NCBI GenBank assembly: GCA_049969615.1
Contig: JBMFOM010000037.1
Coordinates: 1-15,840, forward strand
Direction of reading: 5' to 3'
DNA length: 15,840 bases
Source: a candidate division WOR-3 bacterium
Lineage (GTDB): Bacteria; Hydrothermota; Hydrothermia; JBDRYB01
This document shows positions 4,824 to 15,840 of the stretch, in pieces. The notes under the pieces were generated by a model. The model did no database searches. It was not told where the DNA came from and worked only from the letters and a program-made list of their open reading frames with translations. The position numbers were made by a program, and so were the translations under genes. Each line of letters starts with the position of its first letter. Position 1 is the stretch's first letter.

Positions 4824-4907
4824 AAGGACTTAGAACCATTGCATCGGGTATGTCCAGTCTCCCCAGATGTTCAAATACATGATTCTGCGCGGGAAATGGG
4901 TTATAAT
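4824..4907 (+). repeat. Partial copy (promoter module only) of the dispersed intergenic repeat
   Basis: Ungapped manual alignment to the minus-strand copy near 10411-10494 gives about 65/84 identities; ends in ATGATTCTGCGCGGGAAATGGGTTATAAT. Confidence 0.85.
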
Positions 4908-4914
4908 TTATGAC

Positions 4915-5964
4915 TTGAAAACAAGAGAGGTTAAGGTTCGCGGTGTCGGAATAGGCCACGGCAATCCCGTCCGCGTCCAGTCCATGACATCCACGAGAAC
5001 CGAGGATGTCAGGGCTACGGTTGAGCAGATAAATGCCCTCCATCAGGCCGGAGCTGAACTTGTCAGGGTGGCTGTTCAGTCCGTGGCCGCGGTCAAGCAT
5101 TTCAAAGAGATACGCAAGGAGACAGACATTCCGCTCATAGCGGATGTCCACTTTGATCACAAAATAGCGATAATGTGCGCGGACGCGGGCGCGGACAAAA
5201 TACGGATAAACCCGGGCAACATAAGGGGGCCAGAAAAGGTGGAGGAGGTGATCAGGGCGCTCAGGGCCAACCGTGTTCCGGCCCGGATAGGCGTTAATTC
5301 CGGTTCCCTGGAGGAAGACCTCATTGAAAAGCACGGGGGCGTAACGCCCGAGGCGCTCGCGGAGAGCGCCCTGAGGTGGGCGGATTTCTTTCTGGAAAGG
5401 GATTTTGGAGATTTCCTCCTGTCGGTGAAGTCCAGCCGGGTCCCGGACACCGTGAGGGCTTACAGATTGCTCGCAAAGAAAACCCCTCAGCCCCTGCACC
5501 TAGGCCTCACGGAGGCCGGCCCTCCGTGGCCGGGTGCCATAAGGAGCGCGGTTGCCTTAGGGATTCTGCTTGATGAGGATATAGGCGACACGATAAGGGT
5601 CTCCCTCACAGGCGATCCGGTTGAAGAAGTCAGGGTAGCCTGGGAGATTCTCAGATCCCTTGAGCTAAGGGCTCGCGGCCCCATGATAATCTCCTGCCCG
5701 ACCTGCGGCAGGACCAGGGTTGACATAGTCCCAATCGTTCAGGAGATAACTGAGGCACTGGTAGACATAAAGGAGCCATTTCGTGTGGCTGTGATGGGAT
5801 GCGAGGTCAACGGCCCCGGAGAGGCCAGGGAGGCAGACTTCGGGGTTGCGGCGGGGCGCGGTTTTGGCTTAATATTTAGGAAAGGGCGTGTTGTGAAAAA
5901 GGTCAAGGTAGAGGATATTGCGCGCGCGCTTCTGGAAGAGATAGCCTCATCGGAGCGAGAGTAA
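4915..5964 (+). CDS. ispG: 4-hydroxy-3-methylbut-2-en-1-yl diphosphate synthase (GcpE/IspG)
   Basis: VQSMT, ADVHFD, RINPGN, RIGVNSGSL, HLGLTEAG, IGDTIRVSLT; [4Fe-4S] ligands SCPTCGR and AVMGCEVNGPGEA. The ORF is open from 4867, but the first 16 codons lie in or next to the repeat/promoter; likely start is TTG 4915 (MKTREVKV). Confidence 0.98.
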   Translation: MKTREVKVRGVGIGHGNPVRVQSMTSTRTEDVRATVEQINALHQAGAELVRVAVQSVAAVKHFKEIRKETDIPLIADVHFDHKIAIMCADAGADKIRINPGNIRGPEKVEEVIRALRANRVPARIGVNSGSLEEDLIEKHGGVTPEALAESALRWADFFLERDFGDFLLSVKSSRVPDTVRAYRLLAKKTPQPLHLGLTEAGPPWPGAIRSAVALGILLDEDIGDTIRVSLTGDPVEEVRVAWEILRSLELRARGPMIISCPTCGRTRVDIVPIVQEITEALVDIKEPFRVAVMGCEVNGPGEAREADFGVAAGRGFGLIFRKGRVVKKVKVEDIARALLEEIASSERE

Positions 5965-7191
5965 ATGACATACCTGTTGATTACCTTGCTGATTGGCGCC
6001 AGAGGGCCCTCAAGATGGGATGCCCTGCTCAGGCCATACCCGGAGGCCAGGGTTGACCCGAGAGAATACCGGCTTGGCCCCGGAGACAGCCTAAGGGTAA
6101 CCCTCTTTGGTTCGGTGTCTTATACGGTGGACATCACGGTGGATGTCTCTGGTTGGGTCCCCCTCTATGGGCCGGGCGTTTCCGCGGCAGGCCTAGCCAG
6201 CACCGAGGAAAGCGCCATTCCCGGATATCAGAGCCGTTCATCCGGCACATTTCTCGGAAAGAAATATCTTTCTGGACTTACAATGGCCGAGGCAGAGGAT
6301 ACCCTACGGGCATTCTATGGGTGTTTCTACCGGAAGACGGATGTCAACCTCAGTCTGGCATATCCCAGGGTAGTCTCGGTCAGCGTGGTAGGCCAGGTTC
6401 TCAACCAGGGCGTGATGGCCTGTTCGGCCGTTGAGAGGCTCTCTGATCTCATAGTGAAAGCTGGGGGCGCGACCGGCGGCGCTGATTTGACGGGAATCAG
6501 GGTCAGCATGGACGGACAAGAAAAGGTTTTCAACCTCTACAGGTATTTTCTGGACGGGGATAAATCCCAGAACCCATTGGTGGACAATGATATGACGGTC
6601 TTCATTCCTGCTTCAAAGAAGACCGTAGTCGTATCCGGAGCGGTTGGGCTTTTAACGATCTATTTCAACGACTCAACCAGTCCAGATGTGGTCAAGAGCA
6701 TTGAGGGAGGCAGAACGGTTAGGGTAACTTGGGAAGAGGGAGATAATGTTGAGCGAGCCATAAAAAAGGCTGGAGGCCTGATGTCCAGGGCTTCAGTGGA
6801 AGGAATAACCATTGTCCGCGGCGGGATAAGGATGGCCGCGAGCCTTCAGACAAGCCTGGAGCCGGGTGACAGGGTTGAGGTCCCGCGTATCCCATCTGAG
6901 GTCTATGTGCTAGGAGAGGTAAAACTGCCCGGCGCCTATCAGTATTCACCTGGGTTAACCTACATAGAGTACGTTAGCCTTGCCGGGCCAGGAGAAAGGG
7001 GCTACACAAAGAAATTCACGGTTGTAAAACCTGATGGGTCAAGGGTATCTGTCCGCCCACAGGATGAGGCAAAGGCCGGGGACAGAATAATAGTCAATAG
7101 GGTCGCGTTCCTTTGGTATGACGATTACCTGAGAGTTCTATCCGCTGTAACCACCATAATAGTAACATGGTTAACTCTGAGACGCTGGTGA
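5965..7191 (+). CDS. Polysaccharide biosynthesis/export protein with SLBB domains (Wza/KpsD-like)
   Basis: Poly_export motif EYRLGPGDSLRVTLFG; repeated SLBB units (VSVVGQV...IVKAGG, AIKKAGG...LEPGDRVEVP, VYVLGEVKLPG); C-terminal hydrophobic helix. ATG directly follows the ispG TAA. Confidence 0.85.
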   Translation: MTYLLITLLIGARGPSRWDALLRPYPEARVDPREYRLGPGDSLRVTLFGSVSYTVDITVDVSGWVPLYGPGVSAAGLASTEESAIPGYQSRSSGTFLGKKYLSGLTMAEAEDTLRAFYGCFYRKTDVNLSLAYPRVVSVSVVGQVLNQGVMACSAVERLSDLIVKAGGATGGADLTGIRVSMDGQEKVFNLYRYFLDGDKSQNPLVDNDMTVFIPASKKTVVVSGAVGLLTIYFNDSTSPDVVKSIEGGRTVRVTWEEGDNVERAIKKAGGLMSRASVEGITIVRGGIRMAASLQTSLEPGDRVEVPRIPSEVYVLGEVKLPGAYQYSPGLTYIEYVSLAGPGERGYTKKFTVVKPDGSRVSVRPQDEAKAGDRIIVNRVAFLWYDDYLRVLSAVTTIIVTWLTLRRW

Positions 7192-7217
7192 GGCGCGGAT
7201 CTCCGAGGCGCTGAGAG

Positions 7218-8945
7218 ATGGCTCTGGTGATCATTCTTTCCTCTATATCCTGGGATTATAAAACCCTGAATTACGACATAAGGCTCCTAGTTAGGCCTCT
7301 TGAACAGAGCATAGCCGGGGATGTTTCCCTGACCCTTGCCCTGAGGCCGGAAACTGACACCATGGCCTTTCACCTCACCTCCAACTACACGATTGACTCC
7401 CTGTTTCTGAATGGTGCCCTGGTCCCTTTCCTCAGGGATTCAGACACGGTCTTCGTTCCCATTCTCGCGCCGGTGGAAACATGCACCATCAGGGTATTCT
7501 ATGCTGGGCCCACCCGTGACCGCGGCATCCACTTTAGGGATTCCTCCTTCTTCAGTCTCGGTCAGTTCTATGACTCAAAGGCGTGGCTTCCGTGCAACGA
7601 TAACCCCAGCGCGAAGGCACCCGCCAGGCTCGCGCTGACAGGGCCATACGGCTGTTTCATCGCGTCCAACGGCACTCTAGACAGCGTTCGGGATTCAACA
7701 TATTTCTGGAGAGAAACTCATCCCGTTTCCCCTTATCTGCTCCTGGCCGCGGGTGGCCCATATGTTCGGCTTGACACCTCTTTTGCCGGAATACCCATTT
7801 ATTACTATGTGTTCCCGGACGACACGGCAAAAGCCAGGGTCTCATTCCAACATGTCCCGGACATGCTGAAATTCTACTCAGACAGGTTTGGCGAGTATCC
7901 GTTCCTGGACGAGAAGCTAGCATTTGTTGAGACAGAGGACCCCATAGGCATGGAGACCCAGACCTGCATAATGGTCGGCTCGCACACCATAACCGGTGAC
8001 CTCTCAATGGAATATGTATTCGCTCACGAGTTAGCTCACCAGTGGTGGGGCGATGCGCTGACGCCGGTCTCTTGGAAGGAGATATGGCTCTCGGAGGGGA
8101 TGGCTGTTTGGTCTGACTTCTCGTTCACTGAACATGTCTATGGCCCGGATAGCGCAATAGACAGGTGGCTCTGGGCGAGAGACCTTTATTTCTACGAGGA
8201 CAGCGCCTTGCCACCATATCCCCTCCGTGATCCCGACAGGTTCACAGGCGCGACGGTCTACTGCAAGGGCGCGTGGGTAATAAGGATGCTGAAATGGGTC
8301 ATGGGAGACAGCCTGTTCCAAGAGGGGATGAGATTCTATTACTCGACATACCGGGATAGTATAGTCAACACTGATGATTTTCGGAATGCCATGAGCTATA
8401 TCCTCGGAGACTGCCTCATTTGGTTCTTTTCGGAGTGGTGCGAGGATGTCGGTTATCCACGGGTGCAATATGACTGGTGGCAGGCCGGAGATACCCTGAC
8501 CCTTATCTTCAGGCAGGTTCAGGACCACGGACCCATGTTCTTTATGCCAGTTGAGGTAATGATGATCGGCGGGCCAGACACCGCCAGGGACACGGTTTTC
8601 ATGGGATATGGCTCTGACACATTCCAGCTGAACCCTGGCTTTCAGACCCAGGACCTGATAGTTGACCCAGATTGCAGGGTGCTCATGCGCGCGGAACGCG
8701 TCTGTGGTGCCACCGAGCGCGAGAATCCGGCCCCGAAAATCTTGGTCCAGACGACCGGCAAGGGCTTTATTCGGATTGATAACCACACATCATCACCCGT
8801 AGCCATCAGGATATATGATGCTACGGGCCGGCTCTGGGCAGTTCACCAGGCCAGACCCGGAACGAGCACGGCTAGACTGCCGGGCCCTGGTTTTTACAGG
8901 CTGATCTGGAATGGGGGTGCCATCAGCGCGATATCCCTCAGATGA
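7218..8945 (+). CDS. M1-family zinc aminopeptidase with T9SS-like C-terminal domain
   Basis: HEXXH-X18-E motif (HELAHQWWG...WLSEG), WLPCNDNPSAKA, VYCKGAWVIRML with catalytic Tyr, GME remnant of GXMEN; C-terminal IRIYDATGRL...PGFY. Confidence 0.92.
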   Translation: MALVIILSSISWDYKTLNYDIRLLVRPLEQSIAGDVSLTLALRPETDTMAFHLTSNYTIDSLFLNGALVPFLRDSDTVFVPILAPVETCTIRVFYAGPTRDRGIHFRDSSFFSLGQFYDSKAWLPCNDNPSAKAPARLALTGPYGCFIASNGTLDSVRDSTYFWRETHPVSPYLLLAAGGPYVRLDTSFAGIPIYYYVFPDDTAKARVSFQHVPDMLKFYSDRFGEYPFLDEKLAFVETEDPIGMETQTCIMVGSHTITGDLSMEYVFAHELAHQWWGDALTPVSWKEIWLSEGMAVWSDFSFTEHVYGPDSAIDRWLWARDLYFYEDSALPPYPLRDPDRFTGATVYCKGAWVIRMLKWVMGDSLFQEGMRFYYSTYRDSIVNTDDFRNAMSYILGDCLIWFFSEWCEDVGYPRVQYDWWQAGDTLTLIFRQVQDHGPMFFMPVEVMMIGGPDTARDTVFMGYGSDTFQLNPGFQTQDLIVDPDCRVLMRAERVCGATERENPAPKILVQTTGKGFIRIDNHTSSPVAIRIYDATGRLWAVHQARPGTSTARLPGPGFYRLIWNGGAISAISLR

Positions 8946-9823
8946 AAAACCACAGGCTCTCCCTGAGCGCGGCCGTTATTCTCTGGAGCACTTCATTCCC
9001 AGTGATAAAATGGGCGCTTTTTTACACGAATCCAGGCCCCCTTCTAGCTGTCCGGTTCATCATAGCGGGAATCAGCGCGCTCTCACTCTTCGCTATCCTG
9101 CAAAAGCCCTTTCCTTGGCACATACTGAGAAAGAAGGAAATATGGGCTATGGCCATATCAAACGCCATGGGTTTCGCGCTACAGTTCTTTGGCCAAGACC
9201 TCACCACAGCCTCAAAGGCCGCCCTTATCATAAACAGCTATGTTATCTCGGTTGCCCTCGTCGCGCCCATATTTCTAAAGGAAAGGATAAACCCCCCAAC
9301 TGGTGCGGGGGTTATCATAGGGTTCATCGGCGCTGGCATAGTGTCAACTGGACTCAACCCATCGTTCATGAGCAAGGGCAGTTTCGTGGGTGATCTGATG
9401 TGTGTTGGCGCGGCAATGGTCTATACCATATATATCGTAATCTCAAAGAGGCTGATTGACTCCGGCTGGGATGTCCTTGAAATCGCTTTTGGAACAATGG
9501 TCCTGACCGCGCCGCTCACCCTACCGTTCCTCTTCGTGGGCATCGGATCTTTTGGCTGGATGACCGCAGGTGTGGGGGCTTACCTAGGGATATTCTGCTC
9601 GCTTATTCCTTTCATATTTTACATATACAGCCTGCGCGGCATATCCGCAACCGCCTCCTCGGTGATGCTCCTCGGCGAGGTCGTCCTCGCGGTCTCCTGG
9701 AGTTTTATTTTCCTGCGTGAGAGATTGGGTGTGGCCGAATGGGCTGGCGCCGCCCTGGTTCTCTCAGCAATACTGTTGGTGGGGTTGAGAGGAAAAGAGA
9801 ATTCTGATAAAATGCTCTCGTGA
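8942..9823 (+). CDS. EamA/DMT family transporter
   Basis: 293 aa, about 10 hydrophobic segments in two EamA repeats (ILWSTSFPVIK, RF, FLKER; GDL, FLRERL). ATGA overlap with the upstream gene. Confidence 0.92.
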   Translation: MKNHRLSLSAAVILWSTSFPVIKWALFYTNPGPLLAVRFIIAGISALSLFAILQKPFPWHILRKKEIWAMAISNAMGFALQFFGQDLTTASKAALIINSYVISVALVAPIFLKERINPPTGAGVIIGFIGAGIVSTGLNPSFMSKGSFVGDLMCVGAAMVYTIYIVISKRLIDSGWDVLEIAFGTMVLTAPLTLPFLFVGIGSFGWMTAGVGAYLGIFCSLIPFIFYIYSLRGISATASSVMLLGEVVLAVSWSFIFLRERLGVAEWAGAALVLSAILLVGLRGKENSDKMLS

Positions 9824-9861
9824 CGGGATTCCTCAGGGTTTTACTCTTTGATTTTGGGGTG

Positions 9862-10386
9862 TTATCGCCAGCTCGCGTGAAAAGGCAATAGGTCTTCCTC
9901 TCTGGGCAACAAGTCCACCTTAACATCCCTTGCACCAGAGAGCTCAAGAGCCCTCTCAACCCATCCAGCTATGTTGTGTCGGTAGAGTTCCGGGAGATCG
10001 GGGCAACCGGCTAAACAGAAACGGACAGCGCTCGCGCCGTCTGGTGTGACAATTATCTTGCCAAAGTCGTGATAAAAACCCCATAGGGTATTTGTCCTCT
10101 TTACTATGAATGTGGGGCTGGCAAAGAAAAAAAGTAGCCTATGGGGACCACTGGCGGCTTTGTCAGCTGAATATCTCCCGGTCTCCCATGCTATGACCGT
10201 AGGTTCCAAGGCAAGGGCCTTTGCTATGCCCTCAAGCACATCGCAAAACGCGGGGACGGGATACCAGCTGTTTGAGTTAGGGCTCAGCGGCAGGCCCGCG
10301 CGCATAAATATCTCGCCCCACTTATCCCCCAGCTTCTCCTGGGTAAATGAGGCCAATTCTATCACATCGTAGCCTCTGACATTCAT
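9862..10386 (-). CDS. Hypothetical protein resembling DUF2378/TIGR02265 (V4R/H-NOX-like fold), 174 aa
   Basis: Start ATG 10386 with SD GGAGGTG (10396-10390). Motifs WYP, GRYSA, ASP..., LWGFYHDFG, GWVERALELSG..V.V and terminal W match my recollection of the family. The extra 70 N-terminal codons in the ORF track lie mostly in the repeat. Confidence 0.6.
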   Translation of the reverse strand: MNVRGYDVIELASFTQEKLGDKWGEIFMRAGLPLSPNSNSWYPVPAFCDVLEGIAKALALEPTVIAWETGRYSADKAASGPHRLLFFFASPTFIVKRTNTLWGFYHDFGKIIVTPDGASAVRFCLAGCPDLPELYRHNIAGWVERALELSGARDVKVDLLPREEDLLPFHASWR

Positions 10387-10410
10387 CTTCACCTCCCGGA
10401 TGAGCGTGAA

Positions 10411-10439
10411 ATTATAACCTACTTCCCGTGCAGGATCAA
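10411..10439 (-). promoter_or_regulatory. sigma70-type promoter TTGATC-N17-TATAAT
   Basis: TTGATCCTGCACGGGAAGTAGGTTATAAT on the minus strand, 24 nt upstream of the ATG at 10386. Confidence 0.75.
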
Positions 10440-10610
10440 GTGTTTGCGAGTTTAGGGAGACCGGACAGATCTGAGGCAATAGTTCTAAGTCTTTATGTTT
10501 TTTAGAGACCCCAGATTGAGCCGCGCCCGGGTTCCAAAGACAGGATAAAAATGTTATCTGGGTTGATCCCTTTATAATCCGAGACTTACAACCCATCGCG
10601 AGATCTGGGT
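10411..10610 (-). repeat. Full-length copy of the ~200-bp dispersed intergenic repeat
   Basis: Reverse complement aligns with 13778-13971 at about 140/191 aligned positions by hand (indels of 3 and 9 nt); 26-nt perfect block at 10502-10527. Confidence 0.92.
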
Positions 10611-10797
10611 GATCAGTGGTTCAGGTCCGGTGGAACTCCCTTATCTAGCCTGAGAACTATCGGGACCCCGGTCGGCCCTCGCACTGATTGACCGAGGAGC
10701 CAACCTGAGGGAGACAAAGTTGGCGCCCATATATCTCCAGCGCTACGAAGGGCACACAAAGCCTCCTTCTGTACCATTATCTCAAGAACCCGGGACG

Positions 10798-10824
10798 AAA
10801 AAGCCCCGGCTCAGGGCCGGGGCT
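10798..10824 (-). terminator. Rho-independent terminator
   Basis: Minus strand AGCCCCGGC-CCTGA-GCCGGGGCT-TTTT: perfect 9-bp GC-rich stem plus U tract, 23 nt after the stop at 10848. Confidence 0.8.
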
Positions 10825-10847
10825 GTTGGCTTCAGGGCAGGCAGATC

Positions 10848-11138
10848 TTATGCAGAAGGCGGCGCGGCCTGGGCGCTGAGCTCCTTGAAATACTTTATGC
10901 CCTCTATGAGGGCCCAAATCCACGCGCCCAGGGACGCGAGGATGGTTATGCCCAATGTGCAGGCCGAGAGCACGATACCGCCCACATAGAGGATGAGCTG
11001 GATTATCGCGTTCATCCGCGCCTTCTTGGCCTTGTCCGCGTCGTCCTTCACCCCAGCGGCGTAGATGAGACCGCCCACGCCTGGGATGATGATATTCAGT
11101 ATCAGCACCAATATGCCTCTTGTCTTTGGATCGTCCAT
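10848..11138 (-). CDS. Small membrane protein, paralog 1 (TM2-like or SPEC3/Stum-like), 96 aa
   Basis: Strong SD AGGAGGT at 11152-11146; motif LILNIIIPGVGGLIY...AIIQL...WIWALIEG; own promoter candidate and terminator. Confidence 0.85.
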   Translation of the reverse strand: MDDPKTRGILVLILNIIIPGVGGLIYAAGVKDDADKAKKARMNAIIQLILYVGGIVLSACTLGITILASLGAWIWALIEGIKYFKELSAQAAPPSA

Positions 11139-11169
11139 TTATCAAACCTCCTTTTTCAGGTTTTGGCAA

Positions 11170-11199
11170 ATTTTAATGGCTGAGGTCAAGCTGATGCAA
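11170..11199 (-). promoter_or_regulatory. Putative promoter TTGCAT-N18-TAAAAT
   Basis: Upstream of paralog 1; same architecture and flanks as 12032-12061. Confidence 0.45.
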
Positions 11200-11331
11200 C
11201 TATCTGAGAGGTAGGAATATGTGAGAGCTCAGGACCGGTTGTCAGCGCAAGCAAAATCCAGGAACCGTGGCGACAAGGAGCAATAGCACAAACGTTTCAT
11301 GTCTCCGCAAAGGGTCTTCACCTCAAAAGGC

Positions 11332-11595
11332 CTAGCCCTGGGAGTGCCGGTATATCTCAATCCCTTCAACTATGGCCCATATCCAGACCACAAAAACTGC
11401 AATGATTATGAAATACAGATACTTGTTGCAGGAGGCCATGATTACCGAAAACCAGAAGAGGCAAAGCTGTATAAGTGCCCTTATCCACACCTGTCTATCC
11501 CTCTGAAACCAGACCGAGTATACAAGGCCACCCAGGCCAGGCATCACTATGTTGAGGATGAGGATCAGCGCGGCCTTTGCCCTGGGGTCATCCAT
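11332..11595 (-). CDS. Small membrane protein, paralog 2, 87 aa
   Basis: MDDPRAKAALILILNIVMPGLGGLVY...ALIQL...WIWAIVEGI, clearly homologous to paralog 1; ATG abuts the upstream TGA. Confidence 0.85.
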   Translation of the reverse strand: MDDPRAKAALILILNIVMPGLGGLVYSVWFQRDRQVWIRALIQLCLFWFSVIMASCNKYLYFIIIAVFVVWIWAIVEGIEIYRHSQG

Positions 11596-12009
11596 TCAGC
11601 TTGATGTTTGCGAATGCTGGTAAATGGCTATCGCGTCAATTATGGCCCAGACATACATGCCAATGGGCGGTAGGAGAAGTATGAACACGAAAAGGTAAAG
11701 AACAGCGCCCAGACCCAGGGTGACACCGGTTATGATGGGAAGGGCGAAGAACGAACAGCAGACGAGGAGGACCAACGATCCGACGCTCACTATGAGCTGG
11801 GTGAGGCCGTTCTTGAAAAACCTTTCCGTGGAGGGGTCGGTCGTCTTCTGGGTCGCACCATAGATTATCCCGCCTATGCCGACCCCGGCGAAGCCCGTGA
11901 ACAGGGGAACCAGTATATTCACCAGCATGCAGATGAGGCCCATGGTGTTCTTGTTATCCTTAGCAGTGGGCTTCGCACCCTCTTCTGGCTTCTGTGTCTC
12001 TTCAGACAT
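11596..12009 (-). CDS. Small membrane protein, paralog 3 (more divergent), 137 aa
   Basis: LICMLVNILVP...GIGGIIYG...GLTQL...YVWAIIDAIAIYQHSQ; GGAG SD upstream; C-terminal IYQHSQ matches IYRHSQ of paralog 2. Confidence 0.82.
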   Translation of the reverse strand: MSEETQKPEEGAKPTAKDNKNTMGLICMLVNILVPLFTGFAGVGIGGIIYGATQKTTDPSTERFFKNGLTQLIVSVGSLVLLVCCSFFALPIITGVTLGLGAVLYLFVFILLLPPIGMYVWAIIDAIAIYQHSQTSS

Positions 12010-12031
12010 ATCGTTACTCCATCAGGGCAAA

Positions 12032-12061
12032 ATTCTAGTGGCTAGACTCCCACCGATTCAA
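12032..12061 (-). promoter_or_regulatory. Putative promoter TTGAAT-N18-TAGAAT
   Basis: Upstream of paralog 3. Confidence 0.45.
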
Positions 12062-12211
12062 CATTGATCTTTTCACAGTGTCATGCCATCCTGTCTGAGC
12101 GCGGCCATATCTAACCCGGAGGTTATTGATAATACAAGGATATACATTGCCGCGATAATCACCGCGTTCATGTATATGGAGCAGGCGCGCCGGTTCCGGA
12201 GGTCTTTCAGC

Positions 12212-12240
12212 TTGATCCATCCCGGTCCTTTCAATATCAT
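12212..12240 (+). promoter_or_regulatory. Putative dprA promoter TTGATC-N17-TATCAT
   Basis: Same -35 hexamer as the repeat-borne promoters, 17-nt spacer, -10 box 8 nt before the TTG start. Confidence 0.55.
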
Positions 12241-12248
12241 TTGGCACT

Positions 12249-13313
12249 TTGCGAGAATTAAGGGATTCGCTCGCGGAAAAGATAGGCCTTTTGGCCGTTA
12301 AGGGCCTTGGCCCGGTGCGCTACAGGAAGCTAATAGCCTCGTTCGGATCGCCGGGGGCCGTTTTCTCGGCTAGGGTCGCGGAGCTGGGGCCATTGGTTGG
12401 CGAAAAGGTTGCCCTTGCCATCAAGGTCTTTGATTTCTCAACCGTGGCCGATGACATCCTGTTCGTGGAGCAGGCCGGAATCCACGCGATTGGCTTCTGG
12501 GAGGCTGGTTATCCCACGCACCTCGCGCAGTTGGACGATGCCCCGGCCCTGCTTTTTGTGATGGGAGACCCCGGTATTCTCATGGAGCCAGGGGTCGCTG
12601 TTGTGGGAACGAGAAACCCCACCTCATACGGCCGAAGGGTCGCGGAGGAGTTGGGGGGTGCGCTCGGGAGGGCTGGCATAACCCTAATATCAGGTGGCGC
12701 CTTGGGCATAGATGGGATAGCGCACAGGGCCATCCTGAAAGCCGGCGGCAAGACTGTCGCGGTCATGGGTTCGGGCCACAGGCACCCCTCGCCCTCGTCC
12801 CATCTTGAGCTCTTCGCTCGGATAGCCGAGACTGGCGGCGCAGTGGTCTCCGAGTTCCTGCCGTCGGTAAAACCGGAACCAGGGCACTTTCCCGGCAGGA
12901 ACAGAATAATCTCTGGCCTCTCCTGGGCAACGGTAATTGTGGAGGGGGATGTTGATTCTGGCGCAATGATAACCGCAGGGCACGCCCTCAACCAGGGAAG
13001 GGATGTCTACGCTGTGCCCGGAAACATATTCTCGGATAAGAGCAGGGGAACCAACAGGCTCCTATCTCAGGGCGCCTATGTTTATACTGGCCCGGAGGTT
13101 CTCCTGGGCCAGGGAAGGGAAAGACCCTTGCCGGAAATAGACCCGAACGAGAAGCCAGTTTTTGACCTGGTAAAAGCAGAACCCATGCATGTTGATGAAA
13201 TAGCCGAAGCCCTGGGAATTGACGCGCCGCAAGCCCTTTCGGTCCTCCTCTCCCTGGAGATGAAGGGCGCGGTTAGGCAACTTCCGGGAAAGTTCTTCGT
13301 GAGGGAAAGATAA
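12249..13313 (+). CDS. dprA: DNA-processing protein DprA (Smf)
   Basis: N-terminal HhH-like VKGLGPVRY, YPTHLAQLDDAP, VAVVGTR, SGGALGIDGIAH, FPGRNRIISGLS, SGAMITA, VYAVPG, C-terminal winged helix (LLSLEMKG.V...PG). TTG start. Confidence 0.97.
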   Translation: MRELRDSLAEKIGLLAVKGLGPVRYRKLIASFGSPGAVFSARVAELGPLVGEKVALAIKVFDFSTVADDILFVEQAGIHAIGFWEAGYPTHLAQLDDAPALLFVMGDPGILMEPGVAVVGTRNPTSYGRRVAEELGGALGRAGITLISGGALGIDGIAHRAILKAGGKTVAVMGSGHRHPSPSSHLELFARIAETGGAVVSEFLPSVKPEPGHFPGRNRIISGLSWATVIVEGDVDSGAMITAGHALNQGRDVYAVPGNIFSDKSRGTNRLLSQGAYVYTGPEVLLGQGRERPLPEIDPNEKPVFDLVKAEPMHVDEIAEALGIDAPQALSVLLSLEMKGAVRQLPGKFFVRER

Positions 13314-13332
13314 ACATGAGGAGGTAAATGAT

Positions 13333-13752
13333 ATGGCCATGACAGAAGACGAAGTGCTGGAGCTCTGGGAGCAGATCTCCGGCTACAACTCCGACTGGGA
13401 TAGCATCATAATGGACCTCTTAGATGAGATTGACAGCATGCTTTCCCAGATGACCGTGACAAGGGAAGATGATGAATACGGCTCCTACAGTACAACGGAT
13501 GATTCCTCTCCGGACCTCCAGCATCTCAGGGATACCCTGGTTGATCTCAGGAAGATAATATCCAACGAGGTCAATTCTGCCCTAACCGGCGAGACAGTCA
13601 AGACCGAGCTGGCGGAGTTTTTCGCGAGGGCATCCGAAACGCTCCACCAAATTGAAACAAAGGTCTTTGAACTGCGGGAGCTAACAGGGGAGTTTGACAT
13701 CTACGAGATGGAGGAGGATATGTGGGAAGAGGAAGAAGGAGAGGAGGAATAA
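13333..13752 (+). CDS. Highly acidic helical hypothetical protein, 139 aa
   Basis: SD GGAGGT just upstream, 19 nt after the dprA stop; about 41 D/E versus 8 K/R; poly-Glu tail. Confidence 0.8.
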   Translation: MAMTEDEVLELWEQISGYNSDWDSIIMDLLDEIDSMLSQMTVTREDDEYGSYSTTDDSSPDLQHLRDTLVDLRKIISNEVNSALTGETVKTELAEFFARASETLHQIETKVFELRELTGEFDIYEMEEDMWEEEEGEEE

Positions 13753-13777
13753 CGCTCCTGCCCCGCAAGGTGTTGTA

Positions 13778-13971
13778 ACCGAGATTGAGTGGCAAGTTGT
13801 AAGCATTGAATTGTTAAGGAATCAGTCCAACTAAAAGATTGTTCATCCTATCCTTGGAATTCAGGCGCGGCTCAATCTGGGGTCTCTAAGGAACTAGGAC
13901 CACTACCTCTGGTATGTTCGGTCTTCCCGGATACACAAATAATTGATCCTGCGCAGGAAGTAGGTTATAAT
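13778..13971 (+). repeat. Full-length copy of the ~200-bp dispersed intergenic repeat
   Basis: Homologous to the reverse complement of 10411-10610; contains GGCGCGGCTCAATCTGGGGTCTCTAA (13864-13889), identical in both copies. Confidence 0.92.
13943..13971 (+). promoter_or_regulatory. sigma70-type promoter TTGATC-N17-TATAAT, probably giving a leaderless mRNA
   Basis: TTGATCCTGCGCAGGAAGTAGGTTATAAT; ATG lies 7 nt after the -10 box. Confidence 0.75.
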
Positions 13972-13978
13972 CTCAAGC

Positions 13979-15142
13979 ATGAAAAAGCTCCGGATAATTC
14001 AGTGTTCTGATGCATATTATCCCTTTCCCGGTGGCGTGACAGAGCACCTTCACCATCTTACACTTGCCCTCAGGGAGCGCGGCCACCATGTTGATATACT
14101 AACAGCCGGCTACGAGGGCGCGCCTGAGAGCGAGGAGGGGATCATTCGCGTCGGCAAGATAAAGATACTGAAGGCAACCAAAGCGTTCAATCTCACTCAA
14201 CTCACAATCACCCCAATTACCCCAAAGGTCGCTCAGAAGGTCAAGGAGGTCGTTCGGTCCGGCTACGATATAATCCATGTTCACGGCCCCTATGCGCCAA
14301 ACCTCCCATTTCTCGCGGCCAGGGCCTCGCTTTCTCCTGTTGTGGCAACCCACCATACGGCCTTTGTGGGTTTCAACTGGCACAAGCTGGGGCGGTTCGC
14401 CTTCCGGGGGCTTTCCAAGCGCATAGATGCTAATGTTGGTGTGTCACGGGTCGCTACGGACGAGATATTTCCATATTACCCGGGCCATAACTACTGCATA
14501 ATCCCAAACGGCGTTGACACGAAACGTTTCAGGCCGGATGTCCCCATGATTGAAAAACTCATGAGCATAAAGGGCCCGAAAATCCTCTATGTCGGCCGAA
14601 TGGAACCACGGAAAGGTTTTCCATATATACTGGAAGCGTTCAAGCTGGTGAAGATGGAGATTCCGGACGCTGTTCTCGTCGCCTGCGGAAAGGGACCGAA
14701 CCTGGAGCTATACAAGAAATCCGTGCCATCCGAGCTCAGGGATTCGGTTCTCTTTGAGGGTTTCGTGCCAACCGATCTCTTGCCTTCATACTACGCCTCG
14801 GTGGACCTCTACACCTCCCCCGCGGTAGGCGGCGAGACATTCGGCATAGTCCTCATTGAGGCAATGGCTTGCGGAACTCCGGTCGTCGCGAGTCATATCT
14901 CCGGATATGCGCAGGTCATAGAATCTGGAGTCAACGGCATTCTAACGGACATCTGGAACCCAGAGACCTACGCCGCGGATATCGTCAGGGTTCTTTCTGA
15001 CCGCGAGCTCTATGCCAGGCTTAGGCAAGAGGGCCTTCGCTCCGCGGACAGATACTCCTGGCCACGTGTGGCCGAGCAGGCCGAGGCCCTTTACTATAGG
15101 ATACTTGACGCTAGGGAAAGGGGTGTTCCCTGGTATTCATAA
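13979..15142 (+). CDS. GT4 family glycosyltransferase, PimA-like (phosphatidylinositol alpha-mannosyltransferase-like)
   Basis: PGGV, DIIHVH, IIPNGVD, YVGRMEPRKG, GGETFGIVLIEAMACG (EX7E), YSW. Substrate not certain. Confidence 0.88.
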   Translation: MKKLRIIQCSDAYYPFPGGVTEHLHHLTLALRERGHHVDILTAGYEGAPESEEGIIRVGKIKILKATKAFNLTQLTITPITPKVAQKVKEVVRSGYDIIHVHGPYAPNLPFLAARASLSPVVATHHTAFVGFNWHKLGRFAFRGLSKRIDANVGVSRVATDEIFPYYPGHNYCIIPNGVDTKRFRPDVPMIEKLMSIKGPKILYVGRMEPRKGFPYILEAFKLVKMEIPDAVLVACGKGPNLELYKKSVPSELRDSVLFEGFVPTDLLPSYYASVDLYTSPAVGGETFGIVLIEAMACGTPVVASHISGYAQVIESGVNGILTDIWNPETYAADIVRVLSDRELYARLRQEGLRSADRYSWPRVAEQAEALYYRILDARERGVPWYS

Positions 15143-15158: not shown

Positions 15159-15656
15159 CTACCTCACGACTAGCTTTCCCTTGAACACTGGGTAGGTCCC
15201 CGTACCTGCTCCTATAATCCAGATATAAGCCCCCTGTTCAAGGGGGATCCGGTTCTGGCCTTTCTCTAGGTTGCCGGAATATGCGAGCCTACCCTCAACT
15301 GAGTATATCCTTATTCCGAGATCGACCCTTGAATTGAACACGAGGCCGCCGGATACAGGGGAGCAGGTTATTCCGGAGCCGGGGAGGATGTCCTGCTCTT
15401 CAACGCCCGGCGGGCAAGCGTCGGTTATCGTGAGGGTTGGTGCTGTCGCAGTCGGCGAACAGCTTGCGCCCAGGGAAGGTGATGATGTGCTCGGGGAGGG
15501 GCGTCCACGGTCGGCGAGTAGGCCCGAATGCACCCAGGGTAGTTCCCGTCCTGGTCCAGCTTGAGCACGAGGAAATCGTCATTGCCGGCGCAGAAACTTA
15601 TATGTCGCTCCCGCTACCGCACAGCCTCCGTCAGAGGTCTGGATTATGGAGAGGGT
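15159..15656 (-). pseudogene. 5'-truncated, doubly frameshifted remnant of a secreted beta-propeller protein with T9SS-like C-terminal domain
   Basis: Stitching three frames gives SIIQTSDGGCAVAGATY / SFCAGNDDFLVLKLDQDGNYPGCIRAYSPTV / PSPSTSSP...CPPGVEE...IRIYSVEGRLAYSG...GAYIW...KGKLVVR*; frameshifts near 15599 and 15503. Confidence 0.75.
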
Positions 15657-15840
15657 GGTACCATTCCCCCTGAGTAGGCACCTGAAGTATTTCTATGTGG
15701 TGCCCTTTCATGGGCTTTGTTAAGCCCAAGTTTGACACCAAAACCCCATTTCTAGCTACCCCCATGTTCTGAGATCCGCATAAAATCAAGGTTTGGTTTC
15801 TTGGAATGGTCAGTTTTGGTCAAAAACATGGTGCCGACAT

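Follow-up and report, generated by a model that had tools for sequence, protein, structure and literature searches.

The stretch analyzed here, hereafter termed the window, comprises 15,840 nucleotides and constitutes the entire contig C37 (JBMFOM010000037.1, assembly GCA_049969615.1) of a candidate division WOR-3 bacterium, whose genome amounts to 2.06 Mb in 203 contigs with 54% G+C and is rated 98% complete. The best matches of its threonyl-tRNA synthetase (ThrRS) among species-representative genomes reach no more than 57% identity and are drawn from several phyla, which gave no independent placement. Three copies of a non-coding element (copies A, B and C), which measures about 204 bp when complete, are dispersed over the window, and each of them terminates in a promoter-like sequence facing a different gene. 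Genes were taken from our own crude calls of open reading frames (1948 ORFs) together with ARAGORN (44 tRNA/tmRNA genes).

Copy A, a full-length copy at 13772-13974 on the forward strand, was recovered by nhmmer with E 6e-53 (model positions 2-202) and by a sequence-only covariance model of 16 copies with E 1e-44. Its left junction hexamer TTGTAA (13773-13778), a decayed TTATAA, is directly followed by the 5' inverted-repeat arm CCGAGATTGAGTGGCAAG (13779-13796), while its right end is a predicted promoter at 13943-13971 (10/12 in the promoter scan), made up of a -35 box TTGATC (13943-13948), a 17-nt spacer harboring the palindrome TCCTGCGCAGGA, and a -10 box TATAAT (13966-13971). The gene behind it encodes a GT4 glycosyltransferase (13979-15142, forward strand; Pfam Glycos_transf_1 7e-38, Glyco_transf_4 3e-25), and its ATG (13979) stands 7 nt past the TATAAT, so that the mRNA is predicted to be leaderless or nearly so. 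Copy A was also found intact in the contigs of a public DNA run, where no empty allele was detected.

Copy B, likewise of full length, occupies 10613-10408 on the reverse strand (nhmmer E 2e-49, model positions 5-202), with its left hexamer TGATCA at 10615-10610, its -35 box at 10439-10434 and its -10 box at 10416-10411 (10/12 in the scan). It fronts a DUF2378-like gene at 9862-10386 (reverse strand), for which 24 nt separate the TATAAT from the ATG (10386-10384), leaving a short leader with a GGGAGG Shine-Dalgarno sequence. A longer ORF reaching 10596 was dismissed as an artefact running through copy B. Copy C is 5'-eroded and spans 4824-4910 on the forward strand (nhmmer E 1e-21, model positions 116-202), with weaker similarity continuing upstream as far as the internal arm of the element; its promoter consists of a -35 box ATGATT (4879-4884), a 17-nt spacer and a -10 box TATAAT (4902-4907). 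It is followed by ispG (4915-5964, forward strand; Pfam GcpE 3e-140), whose first in-frame start past the promoter is a TTG at 4915, 7 nt from the TATAAT, again predicting a leaderless mRNA. In the same DNA run, one contig joins copy C to copy B (4880 to 10458) on opposite strands, a junction produced either by chimeric assembly across the repeat or by a genuine inversion between copies B and C.

An initial annotation, prepared from the letters of the window, had described these three stretches as copies of one element delivering a conserved promoter, and its alignment claims were borne out. Copies A and B, aligned by hand end to end at about 73% identity, gave 71.9% over 192 nt in blastn (word size 7) between 13760-13985 (forward) and 10592-10404 (reverse), with E 6e-24. 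The third copy at 4824-4907 (forward) showed 76.2% over 84 nt with copy A, and 77.9% over 86 nt with copy B when taken as 4824-4909. Both the 26-nt identical block GGCGCGGCTCAATCTGGGGTCTCTAA and the 27/29 terminal block were found, the common ending (T/A)TGAT(C/T)CTGCRCRGGAARTRGGTTATAAT is present in all three copies, with the scan reading TTGATC-17 nt-TATAAT in A and B, and the similarity among copies does stop 0-2 nt after TATAAT. The assertion that three different genes are served holds clearly for the GT4 glycosyltransferase and for IspG/GcpE, both on the forward strand, while the assignment of the third gene to DUF2378 is weak (E 0.0011; 19.3 bits, under the 22.2-bit cut-off).

Family size, anatomy and junctions

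The many further copies anticipated from these three were indeed encountered, as an iterated nhmmer search started from copy A retrieved 237 family matches in the genome (E<=1e-3) and the model converged at 204 positions. Its 5' end is covered by 68 matches, a number that climbs steadily until about 190 are reached over the promoter core, and the matches comprise 26 copies with both ends, 151 3'-only, 44 5'-only and 16 middle-only copies. Contig ends cut 19 of the 151 3'-only and 9 of the 44 5'-only copies; conversely, 46 of the 406 contig ends lie within 260 nt of a family match, which indicated that the repeat breaks the assembly. The break points of partial copies are scattered, with the starts of 3'-only copies densest near the core, and the absence of any sharp class in the break-point histograms led to the rejection of two independent sub-elements (positions 1-112 and 113-204). 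Scoring the 23 nt upstream of each of the 1088 exact TATAAT sites in the genome against the family consensus gave a bimodal distribution, in which the background peaks at 4-8 matches, 124 sites gather in a second peak at 17-23, and few sites fall into the trough at 14-16, revealing the promoter-core family as a discrete one beyond chance.

A full copy of about 204 bp reads, in order, TTATAA, CCCAGATTTTGCGGCAGGCTGTAAGCC, a poorly conserved interior, the A-rich stretch CACAAATAC, TTGATC, CTGCGCAGGAAGTGGGT and TATAAT, so that the hexamer TTATAA adjoins CCCAGATTTTGCGGCAGG at the 5' end, while TTGATC and CTGCGCAGGAAGTGGGT adjoin TTATAA plus a T at the 3' end. An imperfect terminal inverted repeat, TTATAACCCAGATTTTGCGGCAGG versus TTATAACCCACTTCCTGC-GCAGG, matches at 19 of 24 positions in register with both termini, a score reached by 6 of 2000 shuffles. 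A third copy of the arm lies inverted at model positions 94-110, which are reverse-complementary to positions 9-25 at a distance of about 68 nt. The spacer contains a perfect 12-bp palindrome, TCCTGCGCAGGA, and the -35 box includes GATC; the commonest spacer variants (GCACAGG and GCGCGGG) break the palindrome through transitions at the central CG. Methylation or a DNA-binding protein could act on this GATC or on the palindrome, for instance at 13944-13960 of the window.

Among 17 full-length copies, the pairwise identity is highest in the -10 box (92%) and the -35 box (88%), followed by the spacer (75%), the 5' end (70%) and the interior (52-59%). The values over all copies are alike, so that both sets together span 70-75% for the 5' end, 52-62% for the interior and 73-75% for the spacer. 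Over about 170 copies, TGATC of the -35 box is 99% conserved and TATAAT 94-99%. That the termini are better kept than the interior resembles the ends of transposons, while the interior identity of 52-62% implies that the family is old. The element has no coding capacity, the sole ORF across a window copy (9862-10596) being the run-through of the downstream gene mentioned above. No family of Rfam 15 at E<=1 matched the element when the whole window was searched, and RNAalifold on 16 full copies yielded a consensus fold of -4.2 kcal/mol with 9 pairs, in which the long arms do not take part. The one chance-level Rfam match elsewhere (anti-hemB, 10795-10942, reverse strand; E 0.77, 20 bits versus a gathering score of 49.5) lies over a strong intrinsic-terminator-like hairpin at 10802-10824 (reverse strand) with 9 pairs, 8 of them G-C, followed by a T run.

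The left junction, evaluated in 70 copies, carries a TTATAA-like hexamer (T 86%, T 86%, A 73%, T 83%, A 81%, A 71%), where the homology stops. In two head-to-tail arrangements (C53:8312 and C1:21124) the 3' end of one copy abuts the 5' end of the next with one common hexamer, as expected from an insertion into the hexamer of an older copy, and at C36:295 the shared hexamer is preceded by a short piece that opens with a second 5' end. At 11 of 69 5' ends, an incoming ORF with a minimum of 70 aa (at least 119 aa in 7 of the 11) uses the last triplet of the left hexamer as its stop codon, compared with 0-4 for other offsets, a control that is imperfect in that the consensus itself has a stop at this position. 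At C53:10719 the stop context AGTTCTAG is identical in a congener (G002), and the hexamer there is thus flank rather than element. One hexamer is present at empty sites and two at filled ones, the left one often degenerate; a copy-specific match between left and right hexamers was suggested by two cases (C108 and C76:3043), too few to count.

Genes faced and orthologous loci

Among the 166 matches that include the -10 box, this end faces a same-strand ORF in 132 and a tRNA gene, beginning 7-14 nt past the TATAAT, in 14, the remaining 20 facing neither. An orientation random with respect to genes had been envisaged at the outset as an outcome opposing the promoter cassette, and 146 of 166 ends pointing into an ORF or a tRNA gene speak otherwise. 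The family accordingly stands before no fewer than 146 transcription units, 132 of them protein-coding ORFs and the other 14 drawn from the 44 called tRNA/tmRNA genes, which comes to approximately 1 gene in 13 when set against the 1948 ORF calls plus tRNA genes, and many of the genes served are housekeeping or tRNA genes.

The 132 ORF-facing copies have the first in-frame start within about 11 nt in 93 cases, a leader of about 12-60 nt in 32 and a longer one in 7. For 139 same-strand ORFs, the spacing from TATAAT to the start was 6 nt in 51, 7 nt in 14, 8 nt in 8, 9 nt in 9 and 10 nt in 6, and the 89 copies with a start codon 5-10 nt past the TATAAT use ATG (53), GTG (24) or TTG (12). A transcript begun about 7 nt after the -10 box would start on the start codon, and leaderless mRNAs are therefore predicted; as most targets are leaderless or tRNA genes, the end of the element comes to lie at a fixed distance from the start codon. 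The family core is missing from about 91 further exact TATAAT sites that are followed by an ATG at 6-7 nt (roughly 27 being expected by chance, by our own estimate), so leaderless promoters appear to be a trait of the organism and not of the element. The 3' end of the element together with the resident -10 box forms a predicted sigma-70-type promoter, with -35 and -10 boxes 17 bp apart and directed at the gene.

Within the window, the promoter of dprA (12212-12240, forward strand) reads TTGATC-17-TATCAT and stands 8 nt before a TTG start at 12249. It has only TTGATCC in common with the family and is not among the nhmmer matches; since the homology with the congener G001 starts at 12211, this promoter including its -35 box is ancestral, and TTGATC may be a usual -35 sequence in this genus.

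The window and eight other contigs or contig pieces were aligned to the two congeners, G001 and G002 (86% and 95% complete). At 14 of 18 3' ends, the point where the G001 homology resumes lies 0-4 nt, in most cases 1-2 nt, ahead of the TATAAT and in no case farther upstream, the four exceptions being C12:10155, C12:3702, C76:2845 and C64:8133; G002 agrees on the boundary at 8 loci. In the window, the homology begins at 13962 for copy A (G001) and at 4901 for copy C (G001 and G002), and it ends at 10417 (G001) and 10416 (G002) for copy B. Where the G001 sequence was inspected, it holds a -10 box of its own with a different upstream half, namely TATAAT 8 nt before the ATG at the GT4 locus, TTGCAC-17-TATAAT with the -10 box at the same place before the DUF2378-like gene, TTATAAT before both the tRNA-Thr gene and a gene on C76, and TATCAT 6 nt before the ATG at another locus. 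The -10 box is thus ancestral, and the element brings what lies upstream of it. The earlier proposal of a cassette that delivers a promoter consequently stands for the A-rich stretch, the -35 box and the spacer, and fails for the -10 hexamer, which occupies the same place in the congeners.

A search for empty sites at orthologous loci, as had been recommended, was confined to six loci alignable across a copy that keeps its 5' end, many flanks lying on separate congener contigs, and it disclosed two clean pairs against G001. At the GT4 locus, 20 nt in G001 (G001:C77) correspond to 215 nt here: the order in G001 is stop codon, 21 nt, TATAAT, 8 nt and ATG, compared with stop codon, 21 nt, TGTAAC, the element, TATAAT, 7 nt and ATG in the window. 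At C76:4787-4988, 203 nt here are matched by 11 nt with a single TTATAAT in G001:C340. Gene order differs strongly among the congeners, and several break points coincide with element copies. For example, thrS, nadE and ispG, which are adjacent here, are distributed over three contigs in G002, and G001 has thrS next to ispG with no nadE; both congeners, unlike this genome, have the DUF2378-like gene oriented divergently from a pair of tRNA genes.

Beyond the aligned loci, the element was present in none of 30 relatives in a DNA search, and the sequence-only covariance model was negative in all of 100 relatives (the 2 congeners and 98 genomes of the same class from 26 further families). The exact core pattern had no match in species-representative genomes, neither the core nor the 5'-end pattern had an exact match in metagenome contigs, an exact-pattern search of viral contigs was negative, and blastn found nothing in plasmids or phages; these collections may omit the genome of the window. 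A comparable high-copy promoter motif in the congeners was also sought, and the candidate CTGCATTATAAT, seen at two G001 promoters, was discarded, as it occurs only three times in G001, three times in G002 and once here.

Candidate mechanism and competing explanations

[quoted passage not shown] We consider it probable, with fair rather than full confidence, that the three copies belong to a lineage-specific, non-autonomous, transposon-like repeat of about 204 bp, which would have spread as follows. The element would enter TTATAA-like hexamers, and the tolerated sites in a genome that is about 90% coding by our own ORF calls would mostly be resident -10 boxes (TATAAT) and the edges of stop codons, with one copy of the hexamer at each end after insertion. 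Although a -10 box hit by an insertion would ordinarily mean a lost promoter, the 3' end of the element would set its -35 box, preceded by an A-rich stretch, at precisely 17 bp from the restored TATAAT, giving a near-consensus sigma-70-type promoter from which the gene could still be expressed. With many genes leaderless and their -10 box 6-7 nt before the start codon, the distance between element and gene would become fixed. The unselected 5' part would subsequently erode by deletion and mutation, while the promoter core of 35-60 nt would stay under purifying selection, and such selection on the 3' core with loss elsewhere would account for the 151 3'-only versus 44 5'-only copies and for the scattered break points.

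A more specific version of this reading is held only tentatively, namely that the element is a -10-box-homing transposon, which might recognize the TTATAA core of resident promoters, persist by virtue of its own end repairing the promoter it splits, and have replaced the upstream half of about one third of the leaderless-type promoters and about one third of the tRNA promoters, such that a single factor could control them. If so, a large share of housekeeping expression would be placed under one common -35/spacer/palindrome sequence. If the MITE-like reading as such holds, some 146 transcription units of this 2-Mb genome would have a single imported upstream promoter half in common, a large natural case of promoter rewiring by a bacterial mobile element. 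That reading would also show how a transposon can last where about 90% of the genome is coding, by landing on a -10 box and rebuilding the promoter. Moreover, the core sequence is a candidate strong constitutive promoter for this uncultured thermophilic lineage.

Several observations weigh against the insertion of a MITE-like element. A homology that ends at the -10 box is also expected at ordinary promoters, whose spacers are rarely conserved at a divergence of about 20%. The length matches exactly at only one empty site (GT4), the locus at C64:7966 is readable in two ways, and at C12:20882, C52:10034 and C53:10713 (5'-only) the congener has 30-84 nt of unrelated sequence instead of the element, which looks like a replacement or an insertion plus deletion. 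In addition, TTATAA is palindromic, and its six bases are not divisible between the inverted repeat and a target-site duplication, and the crude ORF calls may be in error for part of the 20 orphan copies and for part of the start codons. Finally, no partner transposase with the ends of the element was found in this genome by searches that left out the TnpB and IS110-type families. Profile searches detected two genes with DDE_Tnp_1 (PF01609; C70 and C82) and two fragments with Y1 (PF01797; C73 and C39), and nothing for DDE_3 (PF13358) or rve (PF00665); no element ends were found at these genes or fragments, and an all-against-all blastp of our own ORF calls disclosed no multi-copy transposase.

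The replacement-like loci and the missing transposase are what would be expected if the promoter cassette had been copied by illegitimate or microhomology recombination without any transposase, for instance after uptake of the cell's own DNA, with old intergenic DNA being replaced, TTATAA(T) acting as the right anchor, a TTATAA-like hexamer or a stop codon as the left one, and the terminal inverted repeat being incidental. The competence gene dprA lies in the window, and putative mobile promoters without a known vehicle have been described (PMC3575422). Such copying nonetheless appears unlikely, since the 5' end, which has no promoter role, retains 70-75% identity against 52-62% in the interior, as befits an end bound by a transposase, the inverted repeat at the termini is significant, clean insertions are seen at two loci, and the 44 5'-only copies, many of them just past stop codons, are not predicted. 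Distinctly less credible is a regulon signature, in which a global regulator or alternative sigma factor would bind the -35 box, the spacer palindrome TCCTGCGCAGGA and the -10 box, with the upstream 160 bp as a binding platform. The 73-75% identity of the spacer with its perfect palindrome (interior 52-62%), the 99% invariance of TGATC and the many housekeeping and tRNA genes served would suit it; yet the orthologous promoters of both congeners keep the -10 box without the core, the profile is negative in the 100 relatives, the commonest variants GCACAGG and GCGCGGG break the palindrome, the approximately 91 core-less TATAAT sites with an ATG at 6-7 nt imply that RNA polymerase does not need the core, and 5'-only and middle-only copies exist. 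A regulator could also have been recruited after the spread, and in that form the regulon is compatible with mobility.

The gradient of the family invites another interpretation, in which retro-type or one-ended copying starts from the TTATAA end and stops early, so that the excess of 3'-only copies would reflect truncation at insertion. It would explain why the coverage climbs steadily towards the 3' end (from 68 to about 190 matches) and why 3'-only copies start at many positions, densest near the core, but erosion with promoter selection gives the same gradient, the 44 5'-only and 16 middle-only copies are not predicted, and inverted terminal repeats point to a DNA transposon; we accord it very little weight. 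Least of all do we favor a structured non-coding RNA or cis-regulatory leader, for which the odds seem slight indeed. Model positions 9-25 and 94-110 are reverse complements with about 68 nt between them, and copies A and C36 carry matching changes in both arms. On the other side, no Rfam family at E<=1 covers the element, the consensus fold (-4.2 kcal/mol, 9 pairs) leaves the long arms outside, the arm variants are mixed without consistent compensation, and transcription of the faced gene is predicted to begin downstream of the element.

Other repeats were noticed in the course of the search. The transposase gene on C82 belongs to an IS of about 2.3 kb (C82:3907-6240; L055:317-2650) encoding a 499-aa transposase (DUF772, DDE_Tnp_1, DDE_Tnp_1_6), and its inverted ends CTSAGATTATAAGSC resemble the arm of the promoter element (CYCAGATT...TAAGCC) weakly. 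A second, younger repeat family of about 190 nt with 79-86% identity, which begins with GAAACCCCTGATAAAGTAGCGATAA, occurs at C53:8092-8280, C64:78-266 and at least 40 other places; it is nested in some copies of the promoter element (C56, C3 and C2) and inside the C82 IS, and lies directly upstream of promoter cores at C16:19438-19654 and C33:13036-13248. A third repeat of about 118 nt with 93-97% identity (C64:2007-2125, C70:1447-1572 and at least 15 contig ends) adjoins the DDE_Tnp_1 gene of C70 and probably represents one end of an IS that is multi-copy at present and interrupts the assembly. Beside the Y1 fragment of C39, positions 149-420 contain three short hairpins with GC stems and AT-rich loops, CCCCGAATAAATTCGGGG, CCCCGCAATAAATTGCGGGG and CCCCAGGATTTATCCTGGGG, which have the look of REP or IS200-type ends and bear no relation to the promoter element. 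At the end of the window, 15218-15655 and 15719-15840 carry a unit of about 105-155 nt that matches dozens of tandem copies in G002 (e.g., C1:210153-211257 and 221354-224027) and also G001 (C309 and C365). Paralogous ORFs occur here at contig ends (C184, C190, C58 and others), the window contig itself ends inside the unit, and the whole looks like a large repeat-domain protein family or satellite.

Comparison with known systems

The element shares with MITEs a length below about 600 bp without coding capacity, imperfect terminal inverted repeats, many dispersed copies, and presence or absence relative to related genomes; a related autonomous element with the same ends was not found in this 203-contig assembly, where the TnpB and IS110 families were outside the search. 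Among insertion sequences, hybrid promoters are known, in which an outward -35 box in the IS end joins a resident -10 box, usually as single activating events caused by full IS elements. The end of the present element likewise provides a -35 box at the right distance from a flanking -10 box, with the difference that the element is non-autonomous, occupies well over a hundred loci and is apparently aimed at the -10 hexamer itself.

The Correia elements (CREE/NEMIS) of Neisseria, which insert at TA, represent a parallel in terms of working rather than sequence, the present element not being in Rfam. On the account given in PMC10969869, MITEs with outward promoters are established for the Correia elements and several others, and the Correia elements carry sigma-70-type promoters able to drive the neighboring gene (citing Black 1995 and Siddique 2011). 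As far as that account extends, both families are small, gene-less and of high copy number, possess terminal inverted repeats and sigma-70-type promoters, and lie mostly just upstream of genes. The differences are that the host here is an uncultured hot-spring lineage, that the -10 box is the resident one of the target gene, to which the element adds a -35 box and spacer, that the targets are mostly leaderless or tRNA genes with 6-7 nt between the start codon and the end of the element, and that most of this old family has been reduced to promoter cores by erosion.

Putative mobile promoters, i.e., similar upstream sequences before unrelated genes of one genome, were described by Matus-Garcia, Nijveen and van Passel in 2012 (commentary PMC3575422); some of these families reside on known mobile elements, while for most the vehicle is unknown, and the survey, which covered positions -150 to -50 from the start codon at 80% identity over 50 nt, returned mostly pairs. 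Highly similar sequences upstream of unrelated genes are found in both cases, whereas the family here has about 177 members with a 3' end and a visible vehicle with inverted-repeat ends. Owing to the conserved core lying within 50 nt of the start codon of leaderless genes, this family would largely escape such a survey, and screens that ignore the last 50 nt before the start codon would miss comparable families wherever genes are leaderless. The element would furnish a concrete vehicle for the mobile promoter idea.

The inverted pair of 15-17-nt arms about 68 nt apart in the 5' half of the element and its many intergenic copies are reminiscent of REPINs and their RAYT (Y1) transposases. In contrast with these, the arms are not REP-like palindromes, the promoter half is enclosed by a distinct inverted repeat, formed by the outer ends (TTATAACCCA...), and the Y1_Tnp fragments on C73 and C39, which are short and located at contig ends, have no element motif nearby and no arm copy within 4 mismatches.

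Leaderless genes with a -10 box directly before the start codon occur in Deinococcus-Thermus and Actinobacteria, where the literature treats them as a mode of translation initiation. The same arrangement is seen at the family members described here, with TATAAT 6-7 nt before an ATG, GTG or TTG at 65 of them and 5-10 nt at 89, and here a mobile element would exploit it. A limited literature search returned no paper that connects leaderless genes with MITEs and outward promoters. Promoter-carrying mobile repeats as such have been described before, and what is unusual in the present family is its scale, its precision, and its docking on the resident -10 boxes of leaderless and tRNA genes.

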